From NCBI GenBank assembly GCA_963668035.1, contig OY764073.1:3138930-3202929 (forward strand): 64,000 nucleotides of DNA, written 5' to 3'. Numbering within the stretch: position 1 is the first letter of the stretch; the number at the start of each line of letters is the position of its first letter. Both the position numbers and the translations under genes were made by a program. The notes below the pieces were generated by a model, which saw nothing but the letters and a program-made list of their open reading frames with translations, was not told the DNA's origin and made no database searches. The stretch is from Candidatus Poribacteria bacterium. Its GTDB lineage: Bacteria > Poribacteria > WGA-4E > WGA-3G. Below are positions 3,721-47,643 of the stretch, in pieces.

Positions 3721-4729
3721 CTTTTTCCTTCGGAGTGTCGTTCCACTGAAGAACAACACCGAGTAAACCGGGGTTCCATTCCATGAGCAGTTGATATGCC
3801 TTCGGTGCCTCTTCGCCGGGAACACGGTGACTAATCAGCGGCGCAACGTTGAATCGCTTTTCTGCGATAAGGGATAACAGCAATAGACTGTCATCTTCAA
3901 GCGTCCAGTAGTTGGGTGAGGATTCTTGGAGCGGGCGGATAGCGTTATGCGCCCCGTAAAGGATAAGTCCTTTTTTATGCACATCCCGATAGAAGTTCAC
4001 CTTCGGTGTTTCGCCGCGTGTGCTCGCCAACAGCACCACGCGGGCACCCCAGCCTGCTACATCTAAGGCAGTGCTAATTCCGTCCGGATGTCCCGTCGCC
4101 TCAATCACAACAGCTGGTCCATCGCCTCTTGTAGCATCCCTTAACTGCTCAGAGAAATTAGCATCTTCTGGGTTGAAGGTATCATCTGCGCCCATGCTTT
4201 TAGAGATTTCGAGGCGACTATCGGTAAGGTCTGCGGCGATAAGTGGCGTTGCGCCACTGAGTTTTGAGAGTTGCATCGCCAATAAACCGATGAGTCCTTG
4301 TCCCAAAACCAGTGTGGCTTCTCCGAGTTCAATGCGCGCCTTTCGGACCCCTTGTAATGCGATCGCGCCGAGATTAAAAAAGACTGCTTCTTCGGCGGGA
4401 ACATCAGTCGATGGTACTTTAAGCAAACGATTCGGAGCGGTTACAAAATGACTGGTGTGTCCGTGTGTTGAAGCGACGCGTTCACCTACTTGACAGTTCG
4501 TAACCGCTTTCCCGCTTGCTATCACTGTGCCGATGTTGCTGTACCCCGGACGGGATGGATATCGTCCTTGTGCATTTGGGAGTCCTAATAAAAACGCGCG
4601 TTCCGTGCCGGGACTGATAAGCGTACAGTCTGTAGCGACGAGGACTTCATCGTCTCCGATAGGGGGTAATGTAAATGTCTCAATATCGACGTTGGCGCGA
4701 CTCGGCCAAACAACGCGTTGGGCTTTCAT
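3698..4729 (-). CDS. Medium-chain dehydrogenase/reductase family oxidoreductase (zinc-type alcohol dehydrogenase-like; the canonical Zn ligands are not obvious).
   Basis: Rossmann motif [13 protein letters not shown] and an MDR-like N-terminal catalytic domain. It overlaps the fusA start by 23 nt. Confidence 0.65.
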
Positions 4730-4828: not shown

Positions 4829-6439
4829 CTACCGATCAGAGGTCCGAACATTTAGGGTAATATAGTCCCCGCCGCGTCCATCTGGCAATCTGACATAAAG
4901 GAGTATACGGCTTTTGTTTTCCGCTTTCAGTTGCTCGGCGACGCGGGCATAAGCCTTAGCGTCGTCAATCGGCATCCATTCCATTTCTTGGATGAGGTAT
5001 CCGGGTTTGATACCTTCTTTCTCTGCGTTACTGCCGCGTTCAACCTCGGTGACGACAACGCCTTTCTCTTCAGGAGAATGACCGTAACGTTCAGCAAGTT
5101 CAGGAGTCAAGTTTTGGACGTGGATCCCTGCCAACGCTCCTTGGTGTTCCTCTTGGCGTTCGCCTTCAAGTGCCGCGAGGGTTTCCGCTGTGCGTCTCCC
5201 CAATTTAACAGTCAACCGTTTTTCATCGTCTCCCTTTCGGAGAACTGTCACCTCAACAGATGTGCCGACGACTGTCGCGCCGACAATATGCCGTAGGTGA
5301 TTCAAGTCTCGGACTTGCTGCCCATCAAAGGTGAGGATGACATCGCCGCGTTGGATGCCTGCTTTTTCGGCAGGACTTTTCATACCGACGACTTTAACGA
5401 GGACTCCCCGGGGCTGGTCAAGGTTCAGTTTCTCCGCCAACTCAGTACTAACTTCACCCATACTAATGCCGAGCCAACCGCGTTCCACCTTACCGTTTTC
5501 TATCAGTTGTGGCAAAATCTGCTTTGCCATGTTACTCGGAATAGCAAAACTGATTCCGATATTCCCCATCGTAGCGCCGCTGGTAGCAATAAAAGTATTA
5601 ATGCCGACTAATTCGCCCCGAATGTTAATCAGCGCACCGCCGCTATTGCCTCGGTTAATCGGTGCGTCGGTTTGTATGAACTGGCCATAAGCCGTAAATC
5701 CGATTCTGTCCTTCGCGCTCACAATGCCGCGCGTCACAGTTTGTGAGTAATTCAGTGGCGTGCCGATAGCGATAACCCACTCGCCAACTTCAAGCACATC
5801 GGAATCGCCGAACCGCAGGGTTGGAAGATTATCGGCATCAATTTTAATAACTGCCAAATCGCTGCCCCCGACATCACTGCCTGCATCATCACGTCCGATT
5901 AACTCGGCTGTATACTCTTCACCGTCCGCTAAAGTGACCTTAATCTCGTCAGCACGCTCGATAACATGATTATTCGTAAGAATATAACCATCTTCACTGA
6001 TAATTACTCCAGACCCGATACCTGTGGTGGGCTCTGGATTCGGATTGCGCTCGCGCGGGAGAGATTCCCAAAAGCGTCTAAACAATTCTTCTTCCTCAGG
6101 TGTGAGCTGATCTCTACGGAAAAAAGGGGCAAAAGGATTGTCTCCCTCGGGTATCGGCAGCACTCTTCGTGTTGTTACAGTTCTTCTCGGTTTTGCTTCT
6201 GTCGTAATTTGCACGACAGCGGGACGCGTACGCGCGACCAAATCGATAAACGCTCGATTGGCACGTGCCAAGTGCTGAAAATCTTCCGAGTTTTCAAGTG
6301 TTTCGTCCGTTTGCCCGATTGCTGTCTGTACCCTGAACTCATCAGTATCCCAACTGATGACGATCCCTGCTACGACGACAAATGCTGCTAAGATTAATAG
6401 GAGCCTTATCGGGTGGCGAAGTGTGTTTCTGAATTTCAT
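4829..6439 (-). CDS. htrA: Periplasmic serine endoprotease HtrA/DegP (trypsin-like domain plus two PDZ domains).
   Basis: Motifs TNNHVI and GNSGGAL(I/V)N mark a catalytic triad context, with PDZ-like C-terminal repeats. The start was set at ATG 6439 (MKFRNTLRHPIRLLLILAAF signal/TM), preceded by GGAGG. Confidence 0.9.
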   Translation of the reverse strand: MKFRNTLRHPIRLLLILAAFVVVAGIVISWDTDEFRVQTAIGQTDETLENSEDFQHLARANRAFIDLVARTRPAVVQITTEAKPRRTVTTRRVLPIPEGDNPFAPFFRRDQLTPEEEELFRRFWESLPRERNPNPEPTTGIGSGVIISEDGYILTNNHVIERADEIKVTLADGEEYTAELIGRDDAGSDVGGSDLAVIKIDADNLPTLRFGDSDVLEVGEWVIAIGTPLNYSQTVTRGIVSAKDRIGFTAYGQFIQTDAPINRGNSGGALINIRGELVGINTFIATSGATMGNIGISFAIPSNMAKQILPQLIENGKVERGWLGISMGEVSTELAEKLNLDQPRGVLVKVVGMKSPAEKAGIQRGDVILTFDGQQVRDLNHLRHIVGATVVGTSVEVTVLRKGDDEKRLTVKLGRRTAETLAALEGERQEEHQGALAGIHVQNLTPELAERYGHSPEEKGVVVTEVERGSNAEKEGIKPGYLIQEMEWMPIDDAKAYARVAEQLKAENKSRILLYVRLPDGRGGDYITLNVRTSDR

Positions 6440-6753
6440 GGTATAAACCTCCAGTATATTTAACCTAAGTTGCCACCTATTGATAGACATAGCACTCCTA
6501 CGGAGTGCGGTCGCTTAGATACACCGTTTCTATAGACATATCACCCCTACGGGGTGAGGAAAGTGCCTGACAAGTCTTGTGAAAACGTTAAAAACTTGTT
6601 AGTAGCAACTTGGGTTATATTTATTAGCGAAAGTTCCGATCTTGGAGATGACCGGAATCATTTTTTAATTTTTTCTGCTTCCGTTCTAAACACACACCTA
6701 TTGGAGAAAAAAGTTGCAAAAAAGTTCAAAAAAATGCATTGGGTGCGGTCTAT

Positions 6754-7104
6754 TCATTCCCGATTTGAAATTCGATCTACGTGTTCACGGACAATATGTT
6801 GCGGACATAATTTAATAAAGACCCATGCGCCGGGTACCAAGATCAGAAAAGCCCCAACAAAGAGGTCGTCAGCCCAACCGACGATGGGGAGAAAATCAAA
6901 GTCGAGGGGATTCACCAAGTAGGCAATCGCGAAGATAATCGCCAAGAATTCGGCGACAATAAGGATCGCCTTCCGATAGATAGGCACGCGCTCATCGAAA
7001 AACAGCCGCCACGTCAATTTGACGAAATTCGGGAGATGAAGGAGTAGGCGGAAAAGTTTAAAGGGGCCTCGCTTTTTACCGCCAAAGAAAAAAGGATTTA
7101 TCAT
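6754..7104 (-). CDS. DUF1232/YkvA-like small membrane protein.
   Basis: GGKKRGPFKLFRLLL...DFLPIVGWADDLFVGAFLIL resembles the DUF1232 signature. Confidence 0.55.
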   Translation of the reverse strand: MINPFFFGGKKRGPFKLFRLLLHLPNFVKLTWRLFFDERVPIYRKAILIVAEFLAIIFAIAYLVNPLDFDFLPIVGWADDLFVGAFLILVPGAWVFIKLCPQHIVREHVDRISNRE

Positions 7105-7267
7105 AATCTTAGATTTATCAAAACCGTACGAAAATAACGCATATATAGTATTTTGGTTAACAGTTTAATTCATTTTAGCATATCATTCAAGTTTTTATAT
7201 TGATAAAAAGATAACATGCACTGAAACGGAAGTCAAGTGAAAAGGAAAGCTGGATTCTGATAATGTC

Positions 7268-7296
7268 TTGACTTGTAAACTCTATTTTGATATACT
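7268..7296 (+). promoter_or_regulatory. Putative sigma70 promoter TTGACT-17-TATACT upstream of the sugar-phosphate isomerase gene.
   Basis: ttgact (7268-7273), a 17-nt spacer, then tatact (7291-7296). RBS AAGGAG lies at 7323-7328. Confidence 0.4.
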
Positions 7297-7333
7297 ATCC
7301 GAAAATAGCATGAGCCAATAATAAGGAGTCATT

Positions 7334-8119
7334 ATGGCAACACAAAACGCGCGCTCTGCGAAACAGATCGCAGCACAACTTTATACTGTTAGAGAATTTA
7401 CCAAAACTGAGGCGGATATTGCCGAAACAATGAAAAAGGTTCGGCAACTCGGTTACGAAGCGGTGCAATGCTCCGCACTCGGTCCGATTGAACCCGCAGC
7501 CCTGAAAAATATCGTCGACGGTGAGGGTATCAGTATCATCGCAACGCATACCAGCTACCAACGGATGCGCGATGAACCGCAATCTGTCATTGATGAACAT
7601 CAATTATGGGGCTGTAAACATGCCGCAATCGGTGGATTGCCCGGTGAATACCGGTCTGCTGAGGGATACGCCACATTTGCGAAAGAGGCATCCGAAGTCG
7701 CAGCACGGCTCGCCGAAGGCGGTTTGACCTTTTCTTATCATAACCATAGCTTCGAGCTGGAACGCTATAACGGACGGACGGGCTTAGAGATTTTGTACGC
7801 CGAAAGCGATCCGAACTATTTTAAAAGCGAACTGGATACCTATTGGATTCAGCACGGTGGTGGCGACCCTGCGGAATGGGTACGTCAGTTGAAAGGACGT
7901 GCCGACATCATTCATCTCAAGGACATGGCGATGCAAGGCTCTACACAACGCTTTGCGGAAATCGGTGAAGGCAATCTTAATTGGGCTGCCATTTTAAATG
8001 CGTGTCTTTATGCAGGCGTTGAATGGTATATTATCGAGCAGGATAGCTGTTACGAACGCGATCCGTTTGAAAGTTTAGGCATCAGCTTGAATAACCTGAA
8101 AGAGATGGGTTTCGCGTAG
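7334..8119 (+). CDS. Sugar phosphate isomerase/epimerase (xylose-isomerase-like TIM barrel).
   Basis: AP-endonuclease-2/xylose-isomerase-like TIM-barrel signature (AAQLYTVREF..., conserved His/Glu/Asp spacing) and a ~260 aa length. Confidence 0.75.
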   Translation: MATQNARSAKQIAAQLYTVREFTKTEADIAETMKKVRQLGYEAVQCSALGPIEPAALKNIVDGEGISIIATHTSYQRMRDEPQSVIDEHQLWGCKHAAIGGLPGEYRSAEGYATFAKEASEVAARLAEGGLTFSYHNHSFELERYNGRTGLEILYAESDPNYFKSELDTYWIQHGGGDPAEWVRQLKGRADIIHLKDMAMQGSTQRFAEIGEGNLNWAAILNACLYAGVEWYIIEQDSCYERDPFESLGISLNNLKEMGFA

Positions 8120-8170
8120 CGGCGTAGATGGGATGCTGCATTGAGATGGGGGCGGGGGACCCGATTAAGA

Positions 8171-8297
8171 TTGGAGCGGGAAACCCGCCCCTTACGCAAG
8201 AAAACATAAACCCACAATGTGATAGTCAATGAAATCGGAGCGGGAAACCCGCCCCCTACGCAAGAAAACATAAGCACACAATGTGATAGTCAATTTT
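8171..8297 (+). repeat. Two tandem ~63-bp direct repeats, each with a GAGCGGG-AAA-CCCGCCC hairpin, immediately upstream of the tRNA-Pro promoter.
   Basis: Units 8171-8233 and 8234-8297 differ at only a few positions. A partial copy (ggggcgggggacccg) sits at 8147-8165. Confidence 0.8.
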
Positions 8298-8299
8298 TA

Positions 8300-8328
8300 T
8301 TTGACTTTGCGATAACTTAATGATACAA
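8300..8328 (+). promoter_or_regulatory. Putative sigma70 promoter TTGACT-17-TACAAT for tRNA-Pro.
   Basis: ttgact 8300-8305, a 17-nt spacer, then tacaat 8323-8328. This is about 22 nt upstream of the tRNA 5' end. Confidence 0.45.
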
Positions 8329-8349
8329 TTAAATGGATTAATTCTCTAT

Positions 8350-8423
8350 AACGGGGCGTGGCGCAGCCCGGAAGCGCGCTTGAATGGGGTTCAAGAGGTC
8401 GCTGGTTCGAATCCAGTCGCCCC
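8350..8423 (+). tRNA. tRNA-Pro (anticodon GGG).
   Basis: Hand-folded cloverleaf. Acceptor stem cggggcg/cgccccg, D stem gcgc/gcgc, anticodon stem cttga/tcaag, loop aTGGGGt with U33. T arm gctgg-ttcgaat-ccagt, discriminator A. The CCA is not encoded. Confidence 0.85.
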
Positions 8424-8488
8424 GATCTCTGATATGCAATTCGGTTTGTCAGCACGGCAAACGACAAGGAAAGGAGGGAGCTGTAATA

Positions 8489-9811
8489 GTGGATAAATCG
8501 CACGTTAATGTTGGCATCTTAGGATGGGGCACTGTCGGCACAGGGGTCTCCAAAATCCTACTAAATCAGAACGCCCTCATCGCCAAAAACAGTCGCATCG
8601 AATTATGTCTAAAAAAAATAGTCAAACGGACACTCCCTGCGACGCGCGACGGCGTTCAACTGCCTGCGGATTGTCTGACAACGAATCCCGCCGAGGTCGT
8701 TGACAATCCGGATATTGATATTGTCGTAGAGTTAATTGGTGGTGTCACGGAAGCGCACGCGCTCATTAGTCGTGCCATCCGAAACGGCAAACATGTCGTC
8801 ACAGCGAATAAAGCCCTCCTGGCAGAACACGGAGGCGAATTGTTCCAACTCGCTTCAGAGCATCAAGTTAGCCTCAATTTTGAAGCCAGTACAGCAGGTG
8901 GCATCCCGATTATCAAAACACTTCAAGAGAGCTTCGCTGGCAACCAAATCCGTTCCCTCTATGGCATTGTAAACGGAACGTGTAACTACATTTTAACCGA
9001 GATGCACGAACGGAGTGTTGACTTCTCGGACATCCTCAAAGTCGCGCAAGATAAAGGCTATGCCGAAGCCGATCCAACGCTTGATGTTGAAGGGATTGAT
9101 GCCGCGCAGAAACTCATTCTCCTGATCGCGCTTGCCTATCGGAGCAATATTTCACTTTCACAATTTCACGTTGAAGGTATCAGCAGTATCACCCAAAAAG
9201 AGATCCAATATGCGCGCGAACTCGGTTACGTTATTAAGCTGCTCGCTATTGCGAAGTTAAGCACTGGCAACCGTGTAGAGGCGCGCGTCCATCCGACGCT
9301 TGTGCCGGAGCGTAGTCTATTAGCAAACGTCGGCGGTGCCTTCAATGCAGTCTGTGTCATCGGTGACGCGGTCGGTCCCACCCTTTTTTATGGACAAGGT
9401 GCGGGTGAGATGCCGACGGCGAGTGCGGTCGTTGCAGATATTATTGATGCTGGGAAATCCGTGAAACAAGGTGTAAGCACGCCAATTTCGCGAGCGTGGC
9501 TTGCTGGTGCGCAAGCAGAAGTTGATGTCTCTCCGATTGACGATATAGAGACGCGCTACTATCTCCGTTTTGTCGTTGCGGATCGTCCGGGGGTGCTCGC
9601 AAAAATCGGTACTATCTTGGGGAACTGGCAAATTAGTATCGCCTCTGTCATCCAAAAGGATCCGCACGGTATGGAGACCGTATCGCTCGTTATGTTGACC
9701 CACACTGCGCGGGAGAAGAATATGAAAGCAGCACTCGCGGAGATCCATACGCTTGAAGCCGTGAAAGGGGATACACAACTCATTAGAATTGAAGAAGAAG
9801 TCGATTTTTAG
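8489..9811 (+). CDS. hom: Homoserine dehydrogenase with a C-terminal ACT domain.
   Basis: NAD-binding [14 protein letters not shown], a homoserine dehydrogenase catalytic domain, and a C-terminal ACT motif ([23 protein letters not shown]). GTG start at 8489 follows RBS AAGGAGGGAG. The upstream ORF-track extension overlaps the tRNA and was rejected. Confidence 0.9.
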
Positions 9812-15084: not shown

Positions 15085-15597
15085 ATGCCTACTACTATGC
15101 ACTTCGTCTATATCGGTTTTGGGAGCAACATTGACGATAGACTGGTGCATATCCAGAACGCTATCAACGCATTATCGGAAACGGAGGGAATTATGCTGCA
15201 AAAAGTTTCCTCCGTTTACAAAACCGAACCTATCGGTTATGAAGCGCAGGCAGAATTCCTGAACGGGGTCGCTGCAATTCAAACCGACTTCCCCCCCTTA
15301 TCTTTGTTACAGGTCTTAAAAGACATAGAGACGGCTATCGGTAGACAACACCGCATCCGTTGGGGACCCAGAGAAATCGACTTGGACATATTAATCTATG
15401 GCGATGTGTGTCTCCAGACCGAAAAACTCGTCATTCCACATCCAGAGATGCATCTTCGTCATTTCGTATTAGTTCCGTTAGCAGAGATCGCGCCCGACCT
15501 TGTGCATCCCGTTTTCCAAGAAACCATTCAAACCTTATGTAACTGCCTCGAAGATGATACATCTGTGTCCAAATCAGAATTTCTGATCGAAATTTAG
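15085..15597 (+). CDS. folK: 2-amino-4-hydroxy-6-hydroxymethyldihydropteridine pyrophosphokinase (HPPK).
   Basis: Motifs YIGFGSN, RWGPR and IDLDIL. Confidence 0.9.
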
Positions 15598-15600
15598 CTG

Positions 15601-15629
15601 TAGACTCCGATGCCGTAATATGATATAAT
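15601..15629 (+). promoter_or_regulatory. Possible promoter TAGACT-17-TATAAT for the AAA-ATPase gene.
   Basis: tagact 15601-15606, a 17-nt spacer, tataat 15624-15629. RBS AAGGAGG lies before ATG 15660. Confidence 0.3.
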
Positions 15630-15659
15630 TGTCTCAGTTGTTTCAAGGAGGATAGAAAG

Positions 15660-17249
15660 ATGAGATATTTTGAAACAAGGGGACCCGTACATCCTGAGGA
15701 TAACTATGTCGTCGCACGCACGGATGAACTCGCGGATTTTGTGAATCGATTAAAAAGGGGCAGGTACATCGTCCTCTTTGCGCCGCGCCAGACAGGTAAA
15801 ACCACATTTTTCCGAAACGCCCTCGACACATTGGAAGACCAAGAAGACACCTATTTCCCAATACAACTTAATTTTGAGGGATACGTAGAAAGCGATGCCA
15901 CTACCTTTTATACTTCACTCTCTGAAGAAGTATGTAAGCAAATTAGGAAAGTCTATCAACAACGCCAAGCGACTCCGACTGATCAGCTCACCCGTTTTTT
16001 AGCAGATGCGGAGATAACCGAACCTGTTTCAATGCGAAGGTTTTTTGAAGACCTTGGGGAACGCCTCGAACAACGGTTTGTTATGATTATTGACGAGTTT
16101 GATGCTATTCCGAAAGACGCGCTCAGAGGGTTCCTGCACGCACTTCGCCACATCTATATTTCAGGGAGAACACGATGTCCGCATAGCATCGGGATCATCG
16201 GTGTCAAGAACATCACACAGCTCAATTATGATCGTTCTATTTCGCCCTTTAACATACAAGATGAGTTCAAATTGCCGAATTTCACATTGGAACAGGTGGA
16301 AGAACTTTTTTCACAATATACGGATGAAGTCGGACAACCCTTTACACCTGAAGTCACCGAGTCCATTCACAAACAGACGGGTGGACAACCTGTGCTCATC
16401 AATCGTTTTGCGCAGATTCTGACCGAAGAAATGGGCATCCCCAGAAGCGAACCGATTGCAATGCAACACTTTTCAAAAGCACACGCCCAAGTGCTTCGCG
16501 AGGGTCACACGAACATCGATCACCTGGTAGCAAACATCCGTAAGGATCGTCGGTTTGAAGCGTTCCTCATGAAAATCGCCTCTTATGATGAAGGTGTGGA
16601 CTTCAACTTGGATAGTGACATTATCAGCGAACTTGCCACTTACGGTATTATTGCTGAAGGGGCTGACGGTATGTGTGAAATTGTCAACCCAATTTACCAG
16701 TACCGTATCCTTAGGACATTCAAACCGGTAGTGAACGGACTGGAGCGGGAGTATTTACCCGAAGACACTCGCGCGGGATTTCAGGATTATCTCACACTAG
16801 ATGGACAGATCCAGATGACAGCACTTCTTGATAACTTCCGGGATTTTATCGCACGCGCAGGCTTCAGGATCCTTCAGGTGCCCGATACGCCGCAAGAATA
16901 CGTCGGTCAGCACCTCCTTTTTGCATATCTAAGCGAGTTTGTCAAAATTGTGGGTGGGACTATGTACCTTGAGGTGCAAACAGGGCGCGGTAGAATGGAT
17001 ATCCTGATTCTCCACAGAAACCGGAAATACATCGTTGAAACGAAAATCTGGGGTGGAGATGGCCGGTATCAGACTGGCAAAGCGCAACTTGCCGCGTACG
17101 TTAAATCAGAGAAGGCCGTGGAAGGATATTACGTCGTGTTTGACCATCGCAACACGCCGGAAGCACGCGTAGAGACAGAACCTATAGATGGGTTGATCAT
17201 TAGGAGTTACGTGATTCCTGTGATTCAAGAACGTCCCTCAGATTCATGA
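15660..17249 (+). CDS. Predicted AAA-ATPase (ORC/Cdc6-like 'AAA-ATPase_like' N-terminal domain) fused to a C-terminal PD-(D/E)xK nuclease-like domain.
   Basis: Walker A APRQTGKTT and Walker B IIDEFD. The C-terminal segment RMDILILHRNRKYIVETKIWGG fits a D...E.K nuclease core. Confidence 0.75.
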   Translation: MRYFETRGPVHPEDNYVVARTDELADFVNRLKRGRYIVLFAPRQTGKTTFFRNALDTLEDQEDTYFPIQLNFEGYVESDATTFYTSLSEEVCKQIRKVYQQRQATPTDQLTRFLADAEITEPVSMRRFFEDLGERLEQRFVMIIDEFDAIPKDALRGFLHALRHIYISGRTRCPHSIGIIGVKNITQLNYDRSISPFNIQDEFKLPNFTLEQVEELFSQYTDEVGQPFTPEVTESIHKQTGGQPVLINRFAQILTEEMGIPRSEPIAMQHFSKAHAQVLREGHTNIDHLVANIRKDRRFEAFLMKIASYDEGVDFNLDSDIISELATYGIIAEGADGMCEIVNPIYQYRILRTFKPVVNGLEREYLPEDTRAGFQDYLTLDGQIQMTALLDNFRDFIARAGFRILQVPDTPQEYVGQHLLFAYLSEFVKIVGGTMYLEVQTGRGRMDILILHRNRKYIVETKIWGGDGRYQTGKAQLAAYVKSEKAVEGYYVVFDHRNTPEARVETEPIDGLIIRSYVIPVIQERPSDS

Positions 17250-17252
17250 CCT

Positions 17253-17330
17253 GTATCCCGTCTTCCAAGAGACTCTTCAAACCCTAAGTGGTCGCTTTGA
17301 AAGTGATAAGTCTGTAACTAAAACAGTGCC
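17253..17330 (+). other. Diverged duplicate (~75% identical) of the folK 3' terminus (compare 15507-15580), sitting downstream of the AAA-ATPase gene.
   Basis: tgcatcccgttttccaagaaaccattcaaaccttatgtaactgcctcgaagatgata (folK) aligns with tgtatcccgtcttccaagagactcttcaaaccctaagtggtcgctttgaaagtgata. The translated remnant is PVFQETLQTLSGRFESDKSV versus fol[21 protein letters not shown]. Confidence 0.75.
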
Positions 17331-17340
17331 TTTATCTTTT

Positions 17341-17733
17341 TTACTCTTCTGCCACGGCGATCAATTTGTTGGATCCGCCCTCAAACAGATAGCGCTTGCC
17401 ATCCAAGAAACCGACGACATCACCGTGTTCTTCGGCACCGTCCGAGTCGATCAACCGCCAACCTTCGGGTATACCAGCATAGGTGTTAGCTTCTTCATCA
17501 ACTAAAAGGAGGAATTCTTCGTTATGTTCCCCCTCTTTTGGACTGAAGACACGGAACTCATGAAGGGTGTCATCACTTTCTCGGATGCGAAAGCGGGCGG
17601 TATCTCGGACGCATTCTACTTTCCGCATTGTCTTTACGTTTTGACTGGTTTCTGGATGGTGATAGGACCAGTGATAGTTCCAATGTAATCGAAAAATCCG
17701 GACGAATTTCTGCCAAAATCGAATAGTTTTCAT
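17341..17733 (-). CDS. Hypothetical protein (~130 aa), immediately downstream of the 494 aa glycine-zipper protein.
   Basis: ORF only, with no recognisable motifs. The start is ambiguous (ATG 17733, or 17790 overlapping the upstream gene). Confidence 0.45.
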   Translation of the reverse strand: MKTIRFWQKFVRIFRLHWNYHWSYHHPETSQNVKTMRKVECVRDTARFRIRESDDTLHEFRVFSPKEGEHNEEFLLLVDEEANTYAGIPEGWRLIDSDGAEEHGDVVGFLDGKRYLFEGGSNKLIAVAEE

Positions 17734-17765
17734 AACGTTGAACCTCTTTGTAGATTGATTATAGG

Positions 17766-19250
17766 TTAAGCTGTCTCCTCTAACAGACAAATCTTAGCGA
17801 TGACTGTCTCAAGTTCTGCTCCGGATGGAAGTGTAACGGGTGCTCGATTCCGTAGAGCTGTTTTGAACAGATGTGCAAACTCAATACGCACGAAATCGCG
17901 TTTATGGTATTGTTTGAACATCTTCCGTAGCCACTTTACATCGACTGTCATTGCAACCCTTTTGATAATCCGTTCAAATTCAGCTTCGGTAAGAATATAC
18001 TCGAAGGCGAGCCGTGTAAGTTCGTTCCGCAGAATTTTGAGCAGGCGTTTCGAGTCGTCTGGAACAATCTTATCAGCGACGGATTTTGCTGCAACAGTGC
18101 CGCCGATGCCAACTCCCAATGAACCTGCTACACCGCCAACAAACGCTCCTGCCCCTGTGCCGACGATAGGAACCGCGCTGCCGAGAACTGCACCTGCCGC
18201 TGCACCTCCAAACCAGCCAGCCGTGCCAGCGGCAACGCCCGCTGCATTAATTGAGAGATTTTTTGTGAACTGTTGCCATGAAATCGAACGTTCGAAAACC
18301 GCCCTATAAAAATCAGGTGAACTGATGACCATCGTCGCGATCGGGGCTGTGACAGCATTGGTACGGAGCAGCTTAGCGACATGATTGACAGCCACGGCAT
18401 CCGTAACGGATCTCCCTAATGAACCCGCTGCAATTTGACGAATTAAAGCACCACCGATCGGAGTCTGTGAGATAACCTTTACCGCATTATTGATTGGTAC
18501 GGCACCAAATGATGCTATGGGGGTCCGTAACACTTGTGCACTCAAGATGCCTGTGATAAACGCCATGCTTCCACCGGCAATTGCTGATTCAAGTGCCATT
18601 CGTGTCGCTTCTGTCATGTTCTTGCCGCGCCAACATGCTTGTGCCAACGTAATCACGAACGAGACCGCAAGCCCAGACATGGAAGTTACAGATTGCGTTT
18701 TCGCGTCAAAGACGAGTGAATCAATGTTTCCGGCCCGGGCGATGTTTCTCGCTTGTTTGTAGGTTACTGAGCCTTGTAGGACTATTTTCTCCGCGTCAGC
18801 AGGATTGTGAACTCCGGGAACCTGGCCGGACCTAATCCGATCCTGCATTAACTTCACGCATGCTATATACTGATCCTTCGGGACTTCAAGAACTTGTCCT
18901 TCATAGCGATAATCTCCCCAAGGGGAATTAAACGCGGCATCAATAGTTTTAGGGGCCGAGGCATGATACTTAGACTGCACAAACACGCCGTTAACAAGAC
19001 GGTCAGGTCCGTTTGGCGTATTTGAAGTCCCGACAATCTCGGCTTTTTTACCATTAAGTTTGTCTGCCAAATGATTGGCATCTTCCGCGGAAAAACCGTG
19101 GCCATTTTCACCGGAATATTTGAAAATCTGTGTATTCGCCGAGGTGTCCGCAACAAGGGCACCTAAGAGCAGATCAACCTTATTCTTCGGTAAAGCTTCT
19201 ACACAATCATGTTCGTCATTGAACTGTCTAGTTTTACCCAACTTCTTCAT
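17766..19250 (-). CDS. Hypothetical 494 aa protein. It has an N-terminal soluble domain, a central Ala/Gly-rich glycine-zipper hydrophobic region and a C-terminal basic helical domain.
   Basis: GxxxG repeats: GVAAGTAGWFGGAAAGAVLGSAVPIVGTGAGAFVGGVAGSLGVGIGG. No catalytic motif was recognised. Confidence 0.55.
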   Translation of the reverse strand: MKKLGKTRQFNDEHDCVEALPKNKVDLLLGALVADTSANTQIFKYSGENGHGFSAEDANHLADKLNGKKAEIVGTSNTPNGPDRLVNGVFVQSKYHASAPKTIDAAFNSPWGDYRYEGQVLEVPKDQYIACVKLMQDRIRSGQVPGVHNPADAEKIVLQGSVTYKQARNIARAGNIDSLVFDAKTQSVTSMSGLAVSFVITLAQACWRGKNMTEATRMALESAIAGGSMAFITGILSAQVLRTPIASFGAVPINNAVKVISQTPIGGALIRQIAAGSLGRSVTDAVAVNHVAKLLRTNAVTAPIATMVISSPDFYRAVFERSISWQQFTKNLSINAAGVAAGTAGWFGGAAAGAVLGSAVPIVGTGAGAFVGGVAGSLGVGIGGTVAAKSVADKIVPDDSKRLLKILRNELTRLAFEYILTEAEFERIIKRVAMTVDVKWLRKMFKQYHKRDFVRIEFAHLFKTALRNRAPVTLPSGAELETVIAKICLLEETA

Positions 19251-19380: not shown

Positions 19381-19409
19381 TTGCAATTTCCGCGCAAGTA
19401 TGGTATAAT
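19381..19409 (+). promoter_or_regulatory. Sigma70-like promoter TTGCAA-17-TATAAT upstream of sucC.
   Basis: ttgcaa 19381-19386, the 17-nt spacer tttccgcgcaagtatgg, then tataat 19404-19409. Confidence 0.5.
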
Positions 19410-19465
19410 TGGTAATACATTTATCCATAGGACATAAGATATTTACCGAATTTCACAGAAAAAAT

Positions 19466-20650
19466 ATGAATATCCACGAATACCAAGCCAAACAAATTTT
19501 AGAATCTCACGGGGTTAGGACACTACCCGGTGAAGTCGCCGAAACGCCAGAAGCGGCGGAAACCGTTGCACGCGACCTTAATTGTAGTAGATACGTTGTC
19601 AAGGCACAAATTCACGCGGGGGGTCGCGGGAAAGGCGGCGGCATCAAAATCGCAAACTCACCCGCCGAAGTCAAACAACACGCTGAGACGCTGCTCGGCA
19701 TGCAACTCGTAACACCACAGACGGGTCCTGAAGGCAAGCGCGTCCGTAAAGTGCTGATCGCCGCAGCTGTCCAAATAGAAAAAGAATATTATCTCGCTAT
19801 CTTGCTTGACCGTGAAACCTCACAGCTCACCTTAATTGGCAGCGAAGAGGGCGGTGTCAATATTGAAGAAGTTGCAGCGCAAACCCCTGAAAAGATCATC
19901 AGAACACACATCGACCCGGCTTTCGGATTAACCGAATTTCAAGCCCGGGCGTTCGCATACAAACTGATTACCGACATCAATTACCGTCCGATTATTCCAA
20001 ACGCTACAGCACTGATTTTATCGCTTTACAACGCCTTTACCGGATGCGACTGTTCACTCGTAGAGATTAACCCGTTGGCAGTCATAACAACAGATGATGA
20101 ATTGGACATCGTCGCGCTCGATTCTAAGGTAAACCTTGACGACAATTCACTCTGGCGACATCCCGACATCGCTGAGATGCGTGACCCACACGAAGAGGAT
20201 CCGAGTGAATTGGAGGCGAGCGAATCCGGGCTGAGCTACATCCGTCTTGATGGCGACATCGGGTGTATGGTGAACGGTGCCGGGTTAGCCATGGGAACAA
20301 TGGATATTATCAAGCAGAACGGTGGCGAACCCGCGAACTTCCTTGATGTCGGCGGTGGAGCGACCGTGGAAGCAGTCGCCCATGCCTTCCGTCTTATCCT
20401 TGCAGATGAGAATGTGAAGGCTGTCCTCGTCAATATCTTTGGTGGTATCATGAAATGCGACACCATCGCGAACGGCATCGTGGAGGCAGCCAAACAGGTT
20501 CAACTCAATGTCCCGCTCGTCGTCCGATTGGAAGGCACAAACGTGGAACTCGGCAAACAGATTATCGCCGAGTCGGATTTAGATGTCCAACAAGCAGAGG
20601 GGTTATCTGAAGCGGCACAACTTGCAGTAACAGCAGCGAACTCCGCCTAA
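19466..20650 (+). CDS. sucC: Succinate--CoA ligase (ADP-forming) beta subunit.
   Basis: [13 protein letters not shown]-terminus, an ATP-grasp domain, and a C-terminal GGIMKCD motif. Confidence 0.9.
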
Positions 20651-25268: not shown

Positions 25269-28175
25269 TTATTCTGCTACCTTTATACCTTCGAGGACTT
25301 CCTCCCAATCCCATAGAAGGATTGTGCCATCTGCCCCTGTACTGACAACTGTTTTCCCATCGGCAGAGAATTTCAACGTCTCTATATGAGCTGTATGTCC
25401 GGTGAGCGTCGTGAGCTTGTTGCCAGTTCTAACATCCCATAACTGGATCTCGCCACTTACACGTCCATTCACAAGCACGTCATTATCCGGCGAAAATACC
25501 AATACGTTGGAATTATGAGGTATTTCTTCCTTCAGACCAGTATATTTCTCACCTCCGAACAGGCGAATGCGCTGATTACTCCCCACGGCAAGCAACGTCC
25601 CATCTGGCGAGAATGTCAATGCTGAAATTGGTTCCTCAATATTAATATTATTATTGAAATCATCCAAGTTTTGTCCGGCAAGAAGGGTAGCTGATGCAAC
25701 ACCCGTTTCTGTATCCCATACTTGAACTTTCCCGGTCTCAGTAGCACTGACAAGTTCTTTTCTAACCGGCGAGAATGCCAATGCGCTGATTTCAGGGTGA
25801 TACCATAACTCGGGATACTCGGGATGATCGTTCGGATCGAAGAAGGGAATGTCGAGTGTGTGACCTGTTTCTGTATGCCACAAATGGATCTTATCCCAAC
25901 TGTTGAAAGCTAACATTTCTCCATCAGATGAAAATGTCAGATTTGCGGGAGAATCTTCTGTCTCTTTCAAAGTTACCTCATGCCCCGTGCGGGTGTCAGT
26001 TAAACGAATCAAGTTATCAGATGTCGTCAAGGTAAGAACGGCGCTCCCTGCTTTGAAGATCATGTTCGCACGTTTTACACCGATACTGGCGAGCCTCGTG
26101 CCATCCGGTGAAAACACCAAGCTCCTGAACCAATCCCGATGTTCTCCGATCTGAGGTACTGGGTTTTGTGGTGTTTTTAAATCCCAAAAGGTAATTATGC
26201 CGTTAGATGCTGCGCTAACAAGCGTCGAATTCTCTCCCAAGAAAGTAGCCGCCTTTATCCACTGTGAATGTCCGTTAATACGCGTAGCAAGCGATTTGCC
26301 TGTCTTGATATCCCAAAACCGTACGGTGCCGTCTGCGCTTGCACTCGCAAGCATACTACCGTCGGGTGAAAACGTTAGGGCAGTAATGCCGTTAATATGT
26401 CCAATGAATGCCGCGAGTAGTTTACCTGTGGTGGTATCCGACAAAAGCACCGTCTTATCGGTGCTTCCGCTTGCAAGCATTTTTCCGTCTGGAGAAAATG
26501 CTAACACATTTACCCAACCTTCGTGCTGCTGGAGAATGGTCGGTTCATCGTTGCTGGTGGCATTCCATAATCGCACCGTTGTGTCTCCACCGCCGCTGGC
26601 GAGCTGGGTTCCATCGGGCGAAAATGCCAAGGCTAAGACACATTCCTCGGGGAAGTCACGTTCTCCTATTTCCGCATGTCCACTGAGCGTGAATAACTGT
26701 TCACCAGTGATTGTATCCCACAACTCAATACTTCCGTCCTTCTTCCCGACAGCAAATTTATCGTAAGTGAGTGCATCGGGTGCAGGTGAAAAAGTTGAAG
26801 ATTGGTCTTTGATCTTCTTCACATTTCCCTTTCTGGTATCAATATCTAAATGACGAATTGAGCCTCCATGATTTGCCAAACTGATAAGCGTTTTACCGTC
26901 CTCAGAGAACTGCAATACTGAGGCAGAGAACTGCAATGCTGGAAGAGCCACTTTTCGTCTGGTAGCTATTTCCCACAACTGAAGTGCCTCTCCATGGTAC
27001 TGCCCGCCTCCATGGGCAAGGAATCGTCCATCTGGCGAAAAGGCAAGGGATTGGCACATACCGGGGAACATAGACACTTCTTTACCTGTTTCCACATCGT
27101 ATAGCCACACCCCAATATTGCTGCCTACCGCAAGTTGGGTGCCGTCCGGTGAGAATTGAAGTACGTTGATTCCGCCTTTTCCCAGACGCGCTTTTGCATT
27201 TTTGGGTAGTGCCCATTGGGTCCAATCTTTCACGGTTTCCTCCGTTTGTGCCTCTGCAATTCTTGCAGGCGCATCGTTAGGTTGCTGTTCAGGGGTATTG
27301 CGCTTACCCACTGCATTGGCACTTCCTATTTGTATCCGTATATCTGGTTTTGATTCAAGGTTCGCGACTATAGGCGTGTCGATGATATCAACGGTCATTT
27401 CCGAAGAGGCATCAAAACTATAAGGTTTCTGGAAAAGTCCTAAGTATTGGTGGTTTCCAAAACCGAACATTAGCAACACAACTGCTAACGTGGAAGCAGC
27501 AACTGCCCACGGCACTAATGGTTTGCTACTGCACGGGGCATCCGGTTTGACCCGTGAAACCTCGCGCATAATGGTCTCGGTAAGATTCGGTGAGATTTGG
27601 AAATTATCTAAGGCTTCCCTTATGATCGCTTCTTCCTTCTTTAAACGCTGCTGTGCCCGGCGGAGCCGACTCTTAACCGTATTCGCTGATACACCTAAAA
27701 ACACACCGATCTCGGTACACGACATCTCCGCGAAGTAGTGTAGTGTCATCACAGTGCGTTCACTCTCTTGGAGTTTCGCAAGTAGTTTTTTGACGACCTC
27801 GCGTTGTGCTTGTCCGGATATGCGCTCGTTTTCTTCAACGACATACTGAGAGTACGACGGTTCCTCAGATCGGACTCCACCCTTGTTTTTCAACAACTGC
27901 GTCCGTAAATGCTTTTTATGCAACCATGTGTTGCAGCGGCTTGTGGCAATCACATAAAGCCAACTTGCAAAACGCTGCGGCTTTTTCAGCGTTCGGAGTT
28001 TCTGATAGGCTCTCAGGAATGTATCTTGTGTAATCTCCTCGGCAATGTGAAAATCTCCGATTTTCCGCCACGCGAGTGCGTGCACCTGTTTTTGATATTT
28101 TTCCACAAGTGCTGAGAAGGCATTCTCATCGCCGTCGAGAACACGGTGAATTAATTGTGCATCACTGTTTTTCAT
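25269..28175 (-). CDS. ECF-type sigma-70 factor fused to a single TM helix and a C-terminal WD40 beta-propeller (Planctomycete 'ECF01'-like architecture).
   Basis: Sigma region 2 (LVEKYQKQVHALAWRKIGDFHIAEEITQDTFL) and region 4 HTH (TVMTLHYFAEMSCTEIGVFLGVSANTVKSRL). A TM segment (WAVAASTLAVVLLMFGF) is followed by more than 12 FSPDG...LA.G WD40 repeats. Confidence 0.85.
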   Translation of the reverse strand: MKNSDAQLIHRVLDGDENAFSALVEKYQKQVHALAWRKIGDFHIAEEITQDTFLRAYQKLRTLKKPQRFASWLYVIATSRCNTWLHKKHLRTQLLKNKGGVRSEEPSYSQYVVEENERISGQAQREVVKKLLAKLQESERTVMTLHYFAEMSCTEIGVFLGVSANTVKSRLRRAQQRLKKEEAIIREALDNFQISPNLTETIMREVSRVKPDAPCSSKPLVPWAVAASTLAVVLLMFGFGNHQYLGLFQKPYSFDASSEMTVDIIDTPIVANLESKPDIRIQIGSANAVGKRNTPEQQPNDAPARIAEAQTEETVKDWTQWALPKNAKARLGKGGINVLQFSPDGTQLAVGSNIGVWLYDVETGKEVSMFPGMCQSLAFSPDGRFLAHGGGQYHGEALQLWEIATRRKVALPALQFSASVLQFSEDGKTLISLANHGGSIRHLDIDTRKGNVKKIKDQSSTFSPAPDALTYDKFAVGKKDGSIELWDTITGEQLFTLSGHAEIGERDFPEECVLALAFSPDGTQLASGGGDTTVRLWNATSNDEPTILQQHEGWVNVLAFSPDGKMLASGSTDKTVLLSDTTTGKLLAAFIGHINGITALTFSPDGSMLASASADGTVRFWDIKTGKSLATRINGHSQWIKAATFLGENSTLVSAASNGIITFWDLKTPQNPVPQIGEHRDWFRSLVFSPDGTRLASIGVKRANMIFKAGSAVLTLTTSDNLIRLTDTRTGHEVTLKETEDSPANLTFSSDGEMLAFNSWDKIHLWHTETGHTLDIPFFDPNDHPEYPELWYHPEISALAFSPVRKELVSATETGKVQVWDTETGVASATLLAGQNLDDFNNNINIEEPISALTFSPDGTLLAVGSNQRIRLFGGEKYTGLKEEIPHNSNVLVFSPDNDVLVNGRVSGEIQLWDVRTGNKLTTLTGHTAHIETLKFSADGKTVVSTGADGTILLWDWEEVLEGIKVAE

Positions 28176-28218
28176 GGATTACCTCCCATTTCACCCTATA
28201 GTGACACTATGAAACGGC

Positions 28219-28244
28219 GAAACGGGTGCATAATTCTGCACAAA
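28219..28244 (-). promoter_or_regulatory. Conserved upstream motif with a GTGCA-N6-TGCAC dyad (candidate ECF promoter/operator), copy 1.
   Basis: gaaacgggtgcataattctgcacaaa is identical to the copy at 31288-31313. It sits about 45 nt upstream of the start codon. Confidence 0.4.
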
Positions 28245-28282
28245 CGGAAGTGTGTTTGGATAAGGAGCGTTAGAGATTTATT

Positions 28283-36636: not shown

Positions 36637-37795
36637 ATGCGAGAACATCTTATCAGATCAGCGAAGTTTTTTCAATCTGTTTTGTATGCGAACTTTCGGG
36701 ACATGACACCCGAACTTTCTGAAACCTTGCTTGGACTTTCAACGGGACATCTCTTTGGACTGGACAATCCGAATCAAGTCGCAGATGCTTTAGAGGTTTC
36801 GAAGAATAAACTCTATAGAGACCTCAAAGCGATGAGTCTTTATCAGTGGAAGTCTCTGTTAGTGGGTATCGTCTCTATGATCGCTATTGAAGCGATCCGT
36901 GAGACGGAAGCGAAGTCGGCCGCGACACAATCTCGGCGTTGTATCACGCTAAGTGTTGATGACACCAATGATCCTCGGTAGGTCCAAGACGCTCTCTTAT
37001 CGCTATAACTGGTGGTCAACACAGCAGAAGAACGCTATCAAAGGTCGAAACATATTAGCCATCACCATCAAGATCGGCGATGTCATTCTCCCGCTGAACA
37101 TCCGTATCGTCTCTAAACAAGGCAGAGGCAACACGGATAAACCATCGTGCTTTCGGACGATGCTCCAAGAAGTGCTTGATGTCTTTGATGCCGAAGGGAT
37201 TGATCTGAGAAAGTATCCGATCACTTTTGATTCTTGGTATGGCAGCAAAGCACTTGTTGAGGCGTTAGATGAGTTCGGATTTGCCTGCGTCCTTGTCCAC
37301 GGTAAAAGCAACTCTGTCATGGAGATTGAGGGTCAGAGCAGCAAACTTTCAGAACACAAGAAAACCGTCAAGTTGCTGACGGATCAATGGGGATGTGATA
37401 AACCCGTGCGGCGACTGCCCGCGAAGAGCCCGACTTTCGGCGAACTGGTGCTGCTCTTTTTTTCAGCAGAGAGCAAAACGCAAACGATGATGGTCTTTGG
37501 CAGACCTGGACGCTCGGCGGAAATCCTGCATATCTGGTCGCAACACCATGGCATAGAACAGTTTTGGCGACATCTGAAAACCGATCTCCGACTTTCAGCT
37601 ATGAGTTTGCATCACCGAAACGGTGCTTATGGGTCCTTAGGGATAAAGGTTCTCAGTTATCTCATGATCCAGCAGGTGATTCGCTCAGCACGCCTCACTT
37701 TTCATCAGATAAAACTTCAACTTTCGGGCGATAGACAGATGCTGTCTATCATCAAGACGCATTTTCATCAACGAAGCACACAAGAACACCTATAA
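36637..37795 (+). pseudogene. IS4-superfamily DDE transposase (DDE_Tnp_1-like), split by a frameshift near 36960-36980; an IS remnant or inactive IS copy.
   Basis: Two overlapping ORFs in adjacent frames (36637..36981 and 36953..37795). A VDDT motif at the end of ORF1 continues as ...GKTLSYRYNWW in ORF2. There is no slippery heptamer, and the terminal inverted repeats are not clearly definable. Confidence 0.65.
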
Positions 37796-46604: not shown

Positions 46605-47642
46605 ATGCGAAATTTTAGCACATTGCACAAATATCTTTTTTTAGGTTTAGCACTAATTTTAATCTCTGGTTGCGACAGGATTTCGGACGTAACCCTTACT
46701 GAGCCCCCCGCTGCACCGCTTCGCGTAACCATGATATATCCAACCGATTGCGTCGGGAGTGCAGCTTACTGTGACGCTTTCAATATTGGTGTCCAAACTG
46801 CAGCAGCTGAGCTCGAAATTAGTCTTAAAGAGGTTAGTGGAAATGAAAACGATCCGGTAGCGTCAGAGATGGCGGTCAGAGATGCCGCACAGACTTCGGA
46901 CCTCGTTTTGGCAGCGGGTTACCAACTCGGAGAACCGCTCGCTCGCGTTGCCGCTGAATTTCCGGATGTCAAGTTCGCCATTTTTGATGTTGTGCTTGAT
47001 ATTCCGAATGTGGCATCTGTCAACTACAAGTCAAACGAAGGTTCATTTTTAGTCGGCGCGATTGCGGCACTCAAAACAGAGAGCGGTAAAATCGGTTATA
47101 TCGGCGGCGCGGATGTCCTCTTACTACACGAATTTGAAGCTGGTTACGTTGCCGGGATTCAGGCGATCCATCCAGAAGCGGAAATTTCTATTGATTACAT
47201 CAGTCTGGATGCAACCGGGTTCGGTCAGCCGGATAAGGCAAACGAGCTCGCGTTAGCACAATATGAGAGCGGCGTTGATGTGATTTACACCGCAGCCGGC
47301 GGCGCGGGTCAAGGCGTGCTTGAAGCCGCGCAAGCACAACAGAAATATATCATTTGGGTCGATTCTAACGGTAATCATCTTGCCCCCGGTATCGTTCTAA
47401 CGAGCATGGTTAAAGAGATCCCTATCGTTGTGCAAACAATCATCCGTGAAACCGTTGCAGATAAATTTATGCCCGGTATTCGATACTTTGGGCTCGAAGA
47501 TGGCGGTGTGAGTTATGCCGTTGATGAACACAATCAGTCTCTGCTTTCAGATGACATGGTGGCAACCGTTGAGTCGCTGAAAGCAAAAATTATTGCTGGC
47601 GAGATTGTTGTTCCCGACACAGTTTCGCTGCCGAGAGAATAA
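46605..47642 (+). CDS. BMP-family (basic membrane protein/PnrA/Med-like) ABC transporter substrate-binding lipoprotein.
   Basis: Lipobox LISGC and the motifs FAIFDVVLDIPNVASVNYKSNEGSFLVGAIAA and GKIGYIGG. Confidence 0.85.
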   Translation: MRNFSTLHKYLFLGLALILISGCDRISDVTLTEPPAAPLRVTMIYPTDCVGSAAYCDAFNIGVQTAAAELEISLKEVSGNENDPVASEMAVRDAAQTSDLVLAAGYQLGEPLARVAAEFPDVKFAIFDVVLDIPNVASVNYKSNEGSFLVGAIAALKTESGKIGYIGGADVLLLHEFEAGYVAGIQAIHPEAEISIDYISLDATGFGQPDKANELALAQYESGVDVIYTAAGGAGQGVLEAAQAQQKYIIWVDSNGNHLAPGIVLTSMVKEIPIVVQTIIRETVADKFMPGIRYFGLEDGGVSYAVDEHNQSLLSDDMVATVESLKAKIIAGEIVVPDTVSLPRE

Positions 47643-47643
47643 T

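Follow-up and report, generated by a model that had tools for sequence, protein, structure and literature searches.

The window analysed here, a stretch of 64,000 nucleotides (nt) from a sponge symbiont of the Candidatus Poribacteria (assembly GCA_963668035.1, contig OY764073.1, forward-strand positions 3,138,930 to 3,202,929), contains a fabD-fabG-acpP-fabF-folK operon that is followed by a gene for a 529-residue ATPase, by two open reading frames (ORFs) on the minus strand and by sucC-pgk, and a second, imperfect copy of the folK 3' end lies immediately behind the ATPase gene. The gene folK is a 170-codon ORF on the plus strand (15085..15597) that matches the HPPK family of Pfam (PF01288, 138.6 bits), and the upstream, functional copy of the repeat corresponds to its codons 138-164 (15496..15577, plus strand), as delimited by local alignment with a shuffle control and by tblastn. 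The ATPase gene (15660..17249, plus strand) encodes an AAA+ protein with an AAA_35 domain and a C-terminal DUF8371 domain, assigned from Pfam and from a precomputed PF28130 entry; the homologues retrieved both for this protein and for the folK product come from Candidatus Poribacteria. A promoter and a ribosome-binding site of its own had been attributed to the ATPase gene in a sequence-only reading of this DNA that preceded our analysis, and both are present: the promoter scan returns the promoter-like site TAGACT-17-TGnTATAAT at 15601-15629, whose -10 element, CTGATATAAT, is kept in the spacers of eight loci, and the Shine-Dalgarno sequence AAGGAGG occupies 15645-15651, both on the plus strand. 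The displaced or duplicated folK 3' end, hereafter the relic (17248..17326, plus strand), reads LYPVFQETLQTLSGRFESDKSVTKT in the folK-like frame and is non-coding here. Between the two copies nothing is found except a 62-nt spacer and the ATPase gene.

The duplication is real. Positions 15496-15577 and 17248-17326, aligned in the same orientation, are about 75% identical and require two gaps, of 3 nt and of 1 nt, and the local alignment score of 46 lies far above that of dinucleotide shuffles (mean 15.9, standard deviation 2.2, maximum 26). The sequence-only reading had claimed such a recurrence of the folK terminus at about 75%, had proposed pairwise alignment against shuffled controls as the check and had named two folK-like C-terminal peptides; the recurrence is thereby confirmed and the peptides were correctly given. 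The downstream copy starts at the stop codon of the ATPase gene (17247-17249), and it is the top non-self match of the folK terminus on both strands of the 64-kb window, all others scoring 30 or less. Likewise, a tblastn search of the window with the folK product pairs residues 140-164 with positions 17251-17325 (56% identity, E=1.3e-4). A hidden Markov model (HMM) trained on relic sequences only picks up the folK 3' end in almost every one of the 80 related loci, so that the relic is derived from folK. A dispersed repeat was also considered, and no other copy of the relic occurs within the window. The ATPase gene is accordingly flanked by direct repeats from the folK 3' end, but these are about 75% identical and have no identical core.

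In total, 80 species-representative poribacterial folK loci, designated by L numbers as are the further loci cited below, were compared, with a species tree drawn from concatenated fabD, fabG, fabF and folK. The fabF-folK synteny holds in 69 of the 80; 33 of these 69 have a complete ATPase gene behind folK, and three further loci have a truncated one. It is found in two large deep clades, A (which includes the window) and B, and deeper lineages are devoid of it; clade A is monophyletic in the ATPase tree. The interval from folK to sucC is a hypervariable islet of 0.2-4 kb that may hold nothing, o149, the YeeR_C-like o494, a membrane protein of 380-391 residues, WD40 proteins, ABC-2 permeases or a DndB-like pair. 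In the window, o149 (17341..17790, minus strand, from the ORF list) is a convergent island gene of 149 codons that abuts the relic; it has no match in Pfam, PADLOC or NCBIfam and its distribution is patchy, only some relatives carrying it. The adjacent o494 (17766..19250, minus strand) encodes a putative YeeR_C-like membrane protein of 494 residues (PF27347, from precomputed Pfam data on the orthologue in L158/L159) with weak matches to DUF1269 and to PDC-M09B of PADLOC, and this variable island gene is present in only four other loci. The conserved right border of the interval is sucC, which follows it in nearly all loci; here the gene and its promoter (TTGCAA-17-TATAAT, 19381-19409, from the promoter scan) occupy 19381..20650 on the plus strand, and the promoter motif 'TTGAAAAACTTGCAATT' is conserved across loci.

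Most of the seemingly empty loci that were inspected preserve traces of the ATPase gene. In L001, L056 and L058 its promoter and first 32 codons or so are joined to its last 13 or so, in L006 and L027 3' fragments of it are left, and in L016, L020 and L023 the promoter and part of the relic are fused to the sucC promoter. Since promoter, gene fragments or relic parts remain in these eight loci, they represent deletions and not virgin sites. Five others (L015, L019, L030, in which folK is followed by o149, L031 and L043) have no ATPase remnant and a folK tail of the relic type, and for them a repeat-mediated collapse fits as well as a virgin site. Pfam scans of the 30 large ORFs of the window, covering 0.3 to 57 kb, found no integrase or site-specific recombinase, only one DDE_Tnp_1 transposase (36953-37795), and no integrase is present among the genes called in loci L158-L171. 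Given its presence across both clades, the remnants in the empty sites and the lack of an integrase, the ATPase gene is an old resident that has been repeatedly lost, and not a recent integrase-borne insertion. The sequence-only reading had favoured a cassette integrated into the 3' end of a gene, in the manner of islands that target tRNA or tmRNA genes, and had suggested a search for an integrase or recombinase elsewhere on the contig; the 57 kb searched yielded only the transposase, of the insertion-sequence (IS) type and 20 kb away, and a gene present in 33 of 69 loci of two deep clades does not support a recent, integrase-mediated insertion like that of tRNA islands. In fact, the state of the folK locus in relatives largely approaches that of a gene present in all of them with no true empty alleles, which that reading had itself named as telling against it. 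Two observations concern the left side of the interval. In L038 folK and the ATPase gene are separated by two inserted genes (6585-9015), one DndB-like (PF14072) and one for a 455-residue protein of unknown family, and in L037 a WD40/dockerin-like protein is encoded in the same position. In addition, an alignment of 30 poribacterial homologues distinguishes at least 4-5 types of folK C-terminal tail, of 7-20 residues, after '..DDKSV' (window 15540-15597), and these hypervariable tails are patchily spread over the species tree, a pattern that a recombination junction at the gene end would produce.

The relic itself is scattered among the loci of clade A and never follows the ATPase gene in clade B. 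A canonical form occurs in the window, L002, L003, L013, L025 and L164, and these six sequences constitute the whole canonical set; decayed forms occur in L005, L006, L011 and L162 and a fragment in L016, L020 and L023. In every relic the junction is identical, the TGA of the ATPase gene being followed by T(G/A)NYYTG(T/C)ATCC, which argues for one founding event or for a site-specific process. The closest relatives of the window have lost the relic through small deletions (L159, 'gatTGAtgaCTCTTCTGCC', and L158). Between lineages the canonical relics are 84-97% identical where fourfold degenerate sites stand at 41-69%, and their substitutions, 5 synonymous and 12 non-synonymous, reveal no coding bias. 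In the same pairs, conservation is just as high in the neighbouring DNA: L003, L013 and L164 have the relic and about 1.5 kb of downstream cargo in common at 92-100%, the window and L025 have the relic and o149 in common at about 87-90%, and the variable columns per 30 positions of the relic (8, 5, 6) equal those of the last 60 nt of the ATPase gene, which is itself a mosaic between species. Mosaic recombination thus accounts best for the conservation; the canonical relic is most simply read as a young allele that has spread inside the island by recombination, and we infer that it has no function. Among functional folK tails, those of L019 and L043 are the ones to which the relic tail corresponds, with scores of 31 and 26 (others 17 or less, shuffle maximum 29), which suggests that in this subclade recombination between the repeat copies removed the ATPase gene cleanly and made the relic tail functional. 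A possible co-evolution or gene conversion between relic and folK within a genome, at which an nhmmer ranking had hinted, was not borne out by simple identities (56-76%), relic-bearing genomes not being consistently the highest. A 13-codon ORF, MTCIPSSKRLFKP followed by a stop codon (window 17245-17286), starts in an ATGA/TGATG overlap with the stop codon of the ATPase gene and, as read from the sequences, is kept with conservative changes in five canonical relics (window, L002, L003, L013 and L025).

A similar arrangement is found at a second core gene. In L100, one of the loci with metagenomic homologues, 45-47 nt from the 3' end of the gene upstream of an ATPase homologue recur 21 nt past the ATPase stop codon (3882-3926 and 5617-5661); the upstream gene encodes a SpoU/TrmH methyltransferase of Poribacteria, and the ATPase is a paralogue with 62% identity to that of the window. 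Relics of the trmH end are also present in L166-L169, with 48-60 nt and 75-87% identity (4253-4307 and 5988-6042 in L167), and in L166 and L169 they are separated from the ATPase stop codon by 136-330 nt. The trmH relic encodes an intact alternative terminus, the beta-type ..RLEKRLEDSA-stop, which is the functional trmH tail in L170/P0266, P0302 and P0275, while the relic-bearing loci end in ..LGMTQK-stop. When L100 and L167 are compared, third-position identity amounts to 50-67% in the body of trmH and rises to 80% in its last window, the spacer is identical in 40 of 46 positions, and third-position identity in the ATPase gene is 75-95%. This upward step shows that the trmH 3' end and the ATPase gene, as one block, passed between species far more recently than trmH itself and that the left breakpoint is located inside the trmH 3' end. 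Of the replacement-terminus cassette put forward in the sequence-only reading, the tail types and the third-position step thus sustain a part at the trmH locus, namely a new terminus accompanied by a displaced resident copy: the junction scar and the block that includes a core-gene 3' end stand, and the integrase-borne mechanism resembling tRNA islands is not supported. The comparable signal at folK is less strong, the comparison between the window and L158 giving about 66-69% third-position identity in fabF and folK and about 85% in the ATPase gene, with no resolution at codon 138.

The trmH locus has further notable traits. L170 has the other trmH tail type and a divergent ATPase allele (about 55%) and lacks a relic, and the trmH relic runs on to the 13-nt spacer type of L170, as judged by eye and with no statistic attached. 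In three contigs that have an identical trmH, the relic sequences are different and so is the cargo, which is GmrSD or hypothetical genes, GmrSD-type cargo lying downstream in L166, L168 and L169, and within one species the relics diverge faster than the neighbouring synonymous sites. The near-identical genomes of L167 and L169 show 97% third-position identity in the 5' part of trmH and most of the ATPase gene and 60-75% in the last third of trmH (L167 3983-4283) and in a stretch of about 200 nt of the ATPase gene; these drops represent short tracts of recombination inside a single species. L170 also contains, behind its trmH-linked ATPase gene, five head-to-tail copies of a 30-nt unit, TTCTTGTAGCATAAACTTCCAGTTTGTGCG (5508-5687), and three copies of a 214-nt unit (5796-6516), and these have no spacers and are therefore not considered similar to clustered regularly interspaced short palindromic repeats (CRISPR). 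The direct repeats around the ATPase genes are spaced by 1752 nt in the window, 1735 nt in L100, L167 and L168 and 1741 nt in L129. The last is a metagenomic locus of unrelated context in which a non-coding direct repeat of 133-148 nt and 90% identity (260-407 and 2001-2149) flanks an ATPase homologue of 60% identity, the first copy reaching exactly to the ATPase ATG and the second stopping 3 nt short of the ATG of the gene that follows, which encodes a WD40 protein. A 34-nt repeat flanking the homologue in L126 was not counted as a further example, as it lies among non-coding repeats that resemble repetitive extragenic palindromic (REP) elements.

The ATPase matches AAA_35 (PF14516) at 55.7 bits with a cutoff of 27, and PF28130 (DUF8371) is listed for the identical protein P0121 and for all 120 homologues. 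The DUF8371 domain contains a PD-(D/E)xK-like motif, GRMDILI...VETKIW, that is invariant in 22 homologues, and residues 434-472 give sub-threshold matches to NERD (20.3 bits) and PDDEXK_9 (16.8 bits); based on this motif and these matches, we regard the C-terminal domain as a putative PD-(D/E)xK nuclease. An AlphaFold model of modest quality, which served only to assign the N-terminal domain to the ORC/Cdc6/RuvB-like AAA+ proteins, has a predicted local distance difference test score (pLDDT) of 64 overall and of about 80 for residues 415-520. Its best Foldseek matches, dominated by the ATPase part, are the Walker ATPase 2qen of P. abyssi, Cdc6/Orc1 and RuvB, and in this model the N-terminal half thus resembles ORC/Cdc6 and archaeal ATPases. 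The PDB holds no sequence relative of the protein, NCBIfam returned no match, and a literature search on AAA_35, PF14516 and DUF8371 retrieved irrelevant text matches only. The suspicion, voiced in the sequence-only reading, that proteins of this architecture are associated with defence is unproven, PADLOC yielding only short and weak partial matches (PDC-S26, 20.2 bits, residues 440-494; PDC-S01, 16.9 bits); the position of the gene at the edge of islands with DndB-like and GmrSD genes is no more than suggestive. This multi-copy family, which also forms tandem arrays, occurs in unrelated contexts in metagenomes, and among 77 metagenomic homologue loci no conserved partner gene or recombinase was found beside it, the neighbours being mutually unrelated.

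Tandem arrays of the ATPase gene at the folK locus itself are informative in this regard. There are two copies in L034 (6641-9939) and three in L063 (6569-11512), and the last 13-16 nt of folK and its stop codon lie between them: the inter-copy sequences, '..CTTTCTTATAG' continued by ACTTC in L034 and '..GATATATTATAG' continued by ATTTCC in L063, are homologous to the folK stop region. Since the arrays hold the folK end between their copies, intermediates with two units, each composed of a core-gene 3' end and an ATPase gene, do occur. Another tandem ATPase array is present in L136 (4001-6880).

On balance, and with modest confidence, we favour the hypothesis that recombination left the folK-like segment as a scar at the left edge of a small hypervariable island, when a block made up of the ATPase gene and the preceding core-gene 3' end was added. 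The ATPase-nuclease gene is a long-standing resident of the island edge, and the last 70-105 nt or so of the core gene together with the ATPase gene would form a single exchangeable block, passed from species to species by recombination, normally by double crossover, allele for allele. At least once at folK, and independently at trmH, the incoming block would have been added instead of exchanged, whether through a single crossover of the Campbell type with a unit in circular form, through an illegitimate join of transferred DNA that is anchored by homology or through tandem duplication in situ; the two routes that involve transfer are favoured over duplication in situ, because the trmH locus has two different allele types side by side. 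Two tandem units would result, the distal ATPase gene would be lost and its head would be left as the relic. The direct repeats may then permit clean loss of the ATPase gene, and the relic may spread or vanish with the mosaic recombination and the deletions of the island. The additive event itself is our inference.

Several points weigh against this hypothesis. The additive event was not observed, and whether the piece that entered at folK was an ATPase block or a block of relic and cargo is indistinguishable. The sequence behind the relic resembles the spacer and the 5' end of the ATPase gene no better than shuffles do, which does not favour an origin from a tandem unit; a search for remnants of the ATPase promoter after the relic, or after folK in L015 and L019, gave the same outcome. 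Between the window and L003 the high-identity tract measures no more than about 100-150 nt and borders on unrelated DNA on its right side, so that very short recombination tracts, or a later replacement of cargo exactly at the relic end, would be needed. Moreover, at the two loci and in the arrays the unit always begins inside the final 5-35 codons of the upstream gene and stops 0-30 nt past the ATPase stop codon (136-330 nt in L166 and L169); random breakpoints would scatter more, and a more specific mechanism is hinted at. Finally, purifying selection on the relic is possible, only six sequences being available.

If the relic were under selection, it might be a functional non-coding element, such as a 3' untranslated region or an antisense to the folK mRNA, a recognition site at which the ATPase-nuclease captures cargo, or the home of the 13-codon ORF. 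This would account for its high identity between lineages relative to fourfold sites, for its sharp left and right borders, with different cargo beginning at its 3' end, for its constant location between convergent genes and for the stop-start overlap that gives MTCIPSSKRLFKP-like peptides in five lineages. Nevertheless, we judge a selected function improbable. As a structured RNA, the relic has no Rfam match, folds no better than shuffles (z-scores of -0.41 to +0.68 on both strands) and shows no covariation, alifold yielding at most one compensatory pair; as a translated folK-like peptide it has no usable start codon in that frame, and the substitution counts given above do not favour it either. 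Conservation continues for 45 nt past the small ORF, the relic has been lost by deletion from the window's closest relatives and has decayed in L005, L006, L011 and L162, the ATPase gene being intact throughout, the equally conserved adjacent cargo points to shared recent ancestry, and the trmH relics outpace nearby synonymous sites. Hardly probable, in our view, is a classical integrative island, in which a tyrosine or serine recombinase would have used an attB site in the folK 3' end, supplying a new terminus at attL and leaving the relic as attR, with the integrase since lost or acting in trans. Such an island would explain direct repeats of a gene 3' end around foreign-looking DNA, the replacement terminus at trmH and the variable cargo beside both loci, some of it of the defence type (DndB-like in L038, GmrSD at trmH). 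However, no integrase was found in the 57 kb of the window scanned or among the genes called in L158-L171, and a spacer of 46-62 nt and the ATPase gene fill the space between the repeats at both loci, so that two independent and precise integrase deletions would be required; the repeats, at about 75-87% identity, share no identical core, and the ATPase gene is ancestral at the locus. Two relic patterns were also sought as phage attP sites, with no match in viral contigs, and the first of them had no match in one metagenome scan.

The recurrence of the arrangement could alternatively mean that the ATPase-nuclease gene is a single-gene mobile element, a unit of about 1.74 kb that comprises some 70-150 nt of upstream sequence and the ORF and that enters just downstream of conserved genes, either by a very long target duplication or with a portable target 3' end as homology arm; cutting or strand exchange would be driven by the PD-(D/E)xK/AAA+ protein, and excision would proceed via the flanking repeats. 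One architecture with two paralogues at two different core genes, the near-constant repeat spacing (1735-1752 nt), the exact coincidence of the L129 repeats with the ATPase ATG and with a point 3 nt before the next one, the lack of any other gene between the repeats, the single junction of all folK relics and the multi-copy, array-forming nature of the family in unrelated metagenomic contexts all agree with this possibility, as does a sharing of the block of 3' end and ATPase gene between species that exceeds that of the core genome. We still find it unlikely, since residence at the same two loci has been long and largely vertical, with clade B free of the relic, flanking repeats occur in only 3-4 of about 45 other contexts, neither terminal inverted repeats nor conserved end motifs were seen, 136-330 nt intervene between ATPase stop and relic in L166 and L169, no pair of empty and filled sites with high identity was found, and the nuclease fold rests on a motif and sub-threshold matches. 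To our knowledge, there is no precedent for target duplications of 70-150 bp in bacterial transposition. A related and equally doubtful proposal is that AAA_35-DUF8371 ATPase-nucleases are autonomous 'island seeders', which would settle directly behind housekeeping genes with about 70-105 nt of the target 3' end as a homology arm and excise via the direct repeats, the relic marking, and perhaps acting as, the point at which further cargo enters.

A few additional features of the window deserve mention. The folK product is represented in the public record by a protein of 134 residues (P0042) that is 100% identical over 79% of the 170-codon ORF, and a longer or intermediate start is backed by relatives. 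Inside folK, a weak Rfam match to the COG2827 RNA (15141-15222, 26.5 bits against a gathering threshold of 49.1, E=0.13) is most likely due to chance. Three very large WD40 beta-propeller proteins of 968, 986 and 671 residues are encoded at 25269-31243 and 47593-49608, and WD40 proteins are also cargo of the folK-sucC interval in L037 and L041. The DDE transposase mentioned above is of the IS4 type (PF01609); it is the sole mobile-element gene seen in the window and, at 20 kb from the relic, has no visible link to it.

Should the recombination-scar hypothesis be correct, the locus would represent a natural example of how small islands beside core genes are built and remodelled without an integrase, and the leftover direct repeats would let an island gene go without harm to folK. 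A partial copy of the terminus of a housekeeping gene could then serve as a marker of past additive transfers in uncultured symbionts. The occurrence of the same scar with two paralogues raises the question of whether the ATPase-nuclease family promotes its own integration, which, if true, would make it a new kind of mobile element; in the 'island seeder' version it would offer a recombinase-free route to variable or defence islands.

The ATPase-nuclease may be compared with stand-alone families that combine AAA+ and PD-(D/E)xK domains (PF01637/DUF234, and PF09820 with PF08011), with which it has in common an ORC/Cdc6-like Walker ATPase at the N-terminus and a D..ExK motif at the C-terminus; these families and the window ATPase are often multi-copy and of unknown function. 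In contrast to them, it consists of AAA_35 and DUF8371 and scores below threshold for PF01637, PF09820, PF08011 and NERD. As to the locus, integrative islands at the 3' end of tRNA, transfer-messenger RNA (tmRNA) or protein genes, including decayed arrays of the tycheposon type, leave partial copies of their target, and the present case resembles them in the partial target copy on the far side, in the block-borne terminus that completes the gene at the trmH locus and in the variable, partly defence-like cargo that adjoins. It differs in that no integrase was found, the unit has a single gene and the repeats have diverged to 75-87% identity, and also in its residence across deep clades and in a mode of spread that has the look of homologous recombination among related species. 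Homology-facilitated illegitimate recombination and Campbell-type additive recombination, which have a homologous anchor at one end and a non-homologous join at the other, are sporadic and produce random junctions. They provide both the foreign DNA and the duplication of recipient sequence, and would explain the step in synonymous identity and the displaced terminus of the resident type, but here the geometry recurs at two loci and in arrays, and a single junction is found in all folK relics. Hotspots for defence or other variable genes flanked by core genes are similar in that unrelated genes come and go (DndB-like, GmrSD, YeeR_C-like), with deletions and allele swapping, and different in that this islet is very small (0.2-4 kb) and that one ATPase-nuclease family stands at the left edge of two hotspots. 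Taken together, these comparisons place the case as an insertion or duplication scar at a variable island flanked by core genes, recurrently linked to one ATPase-nuclease family.

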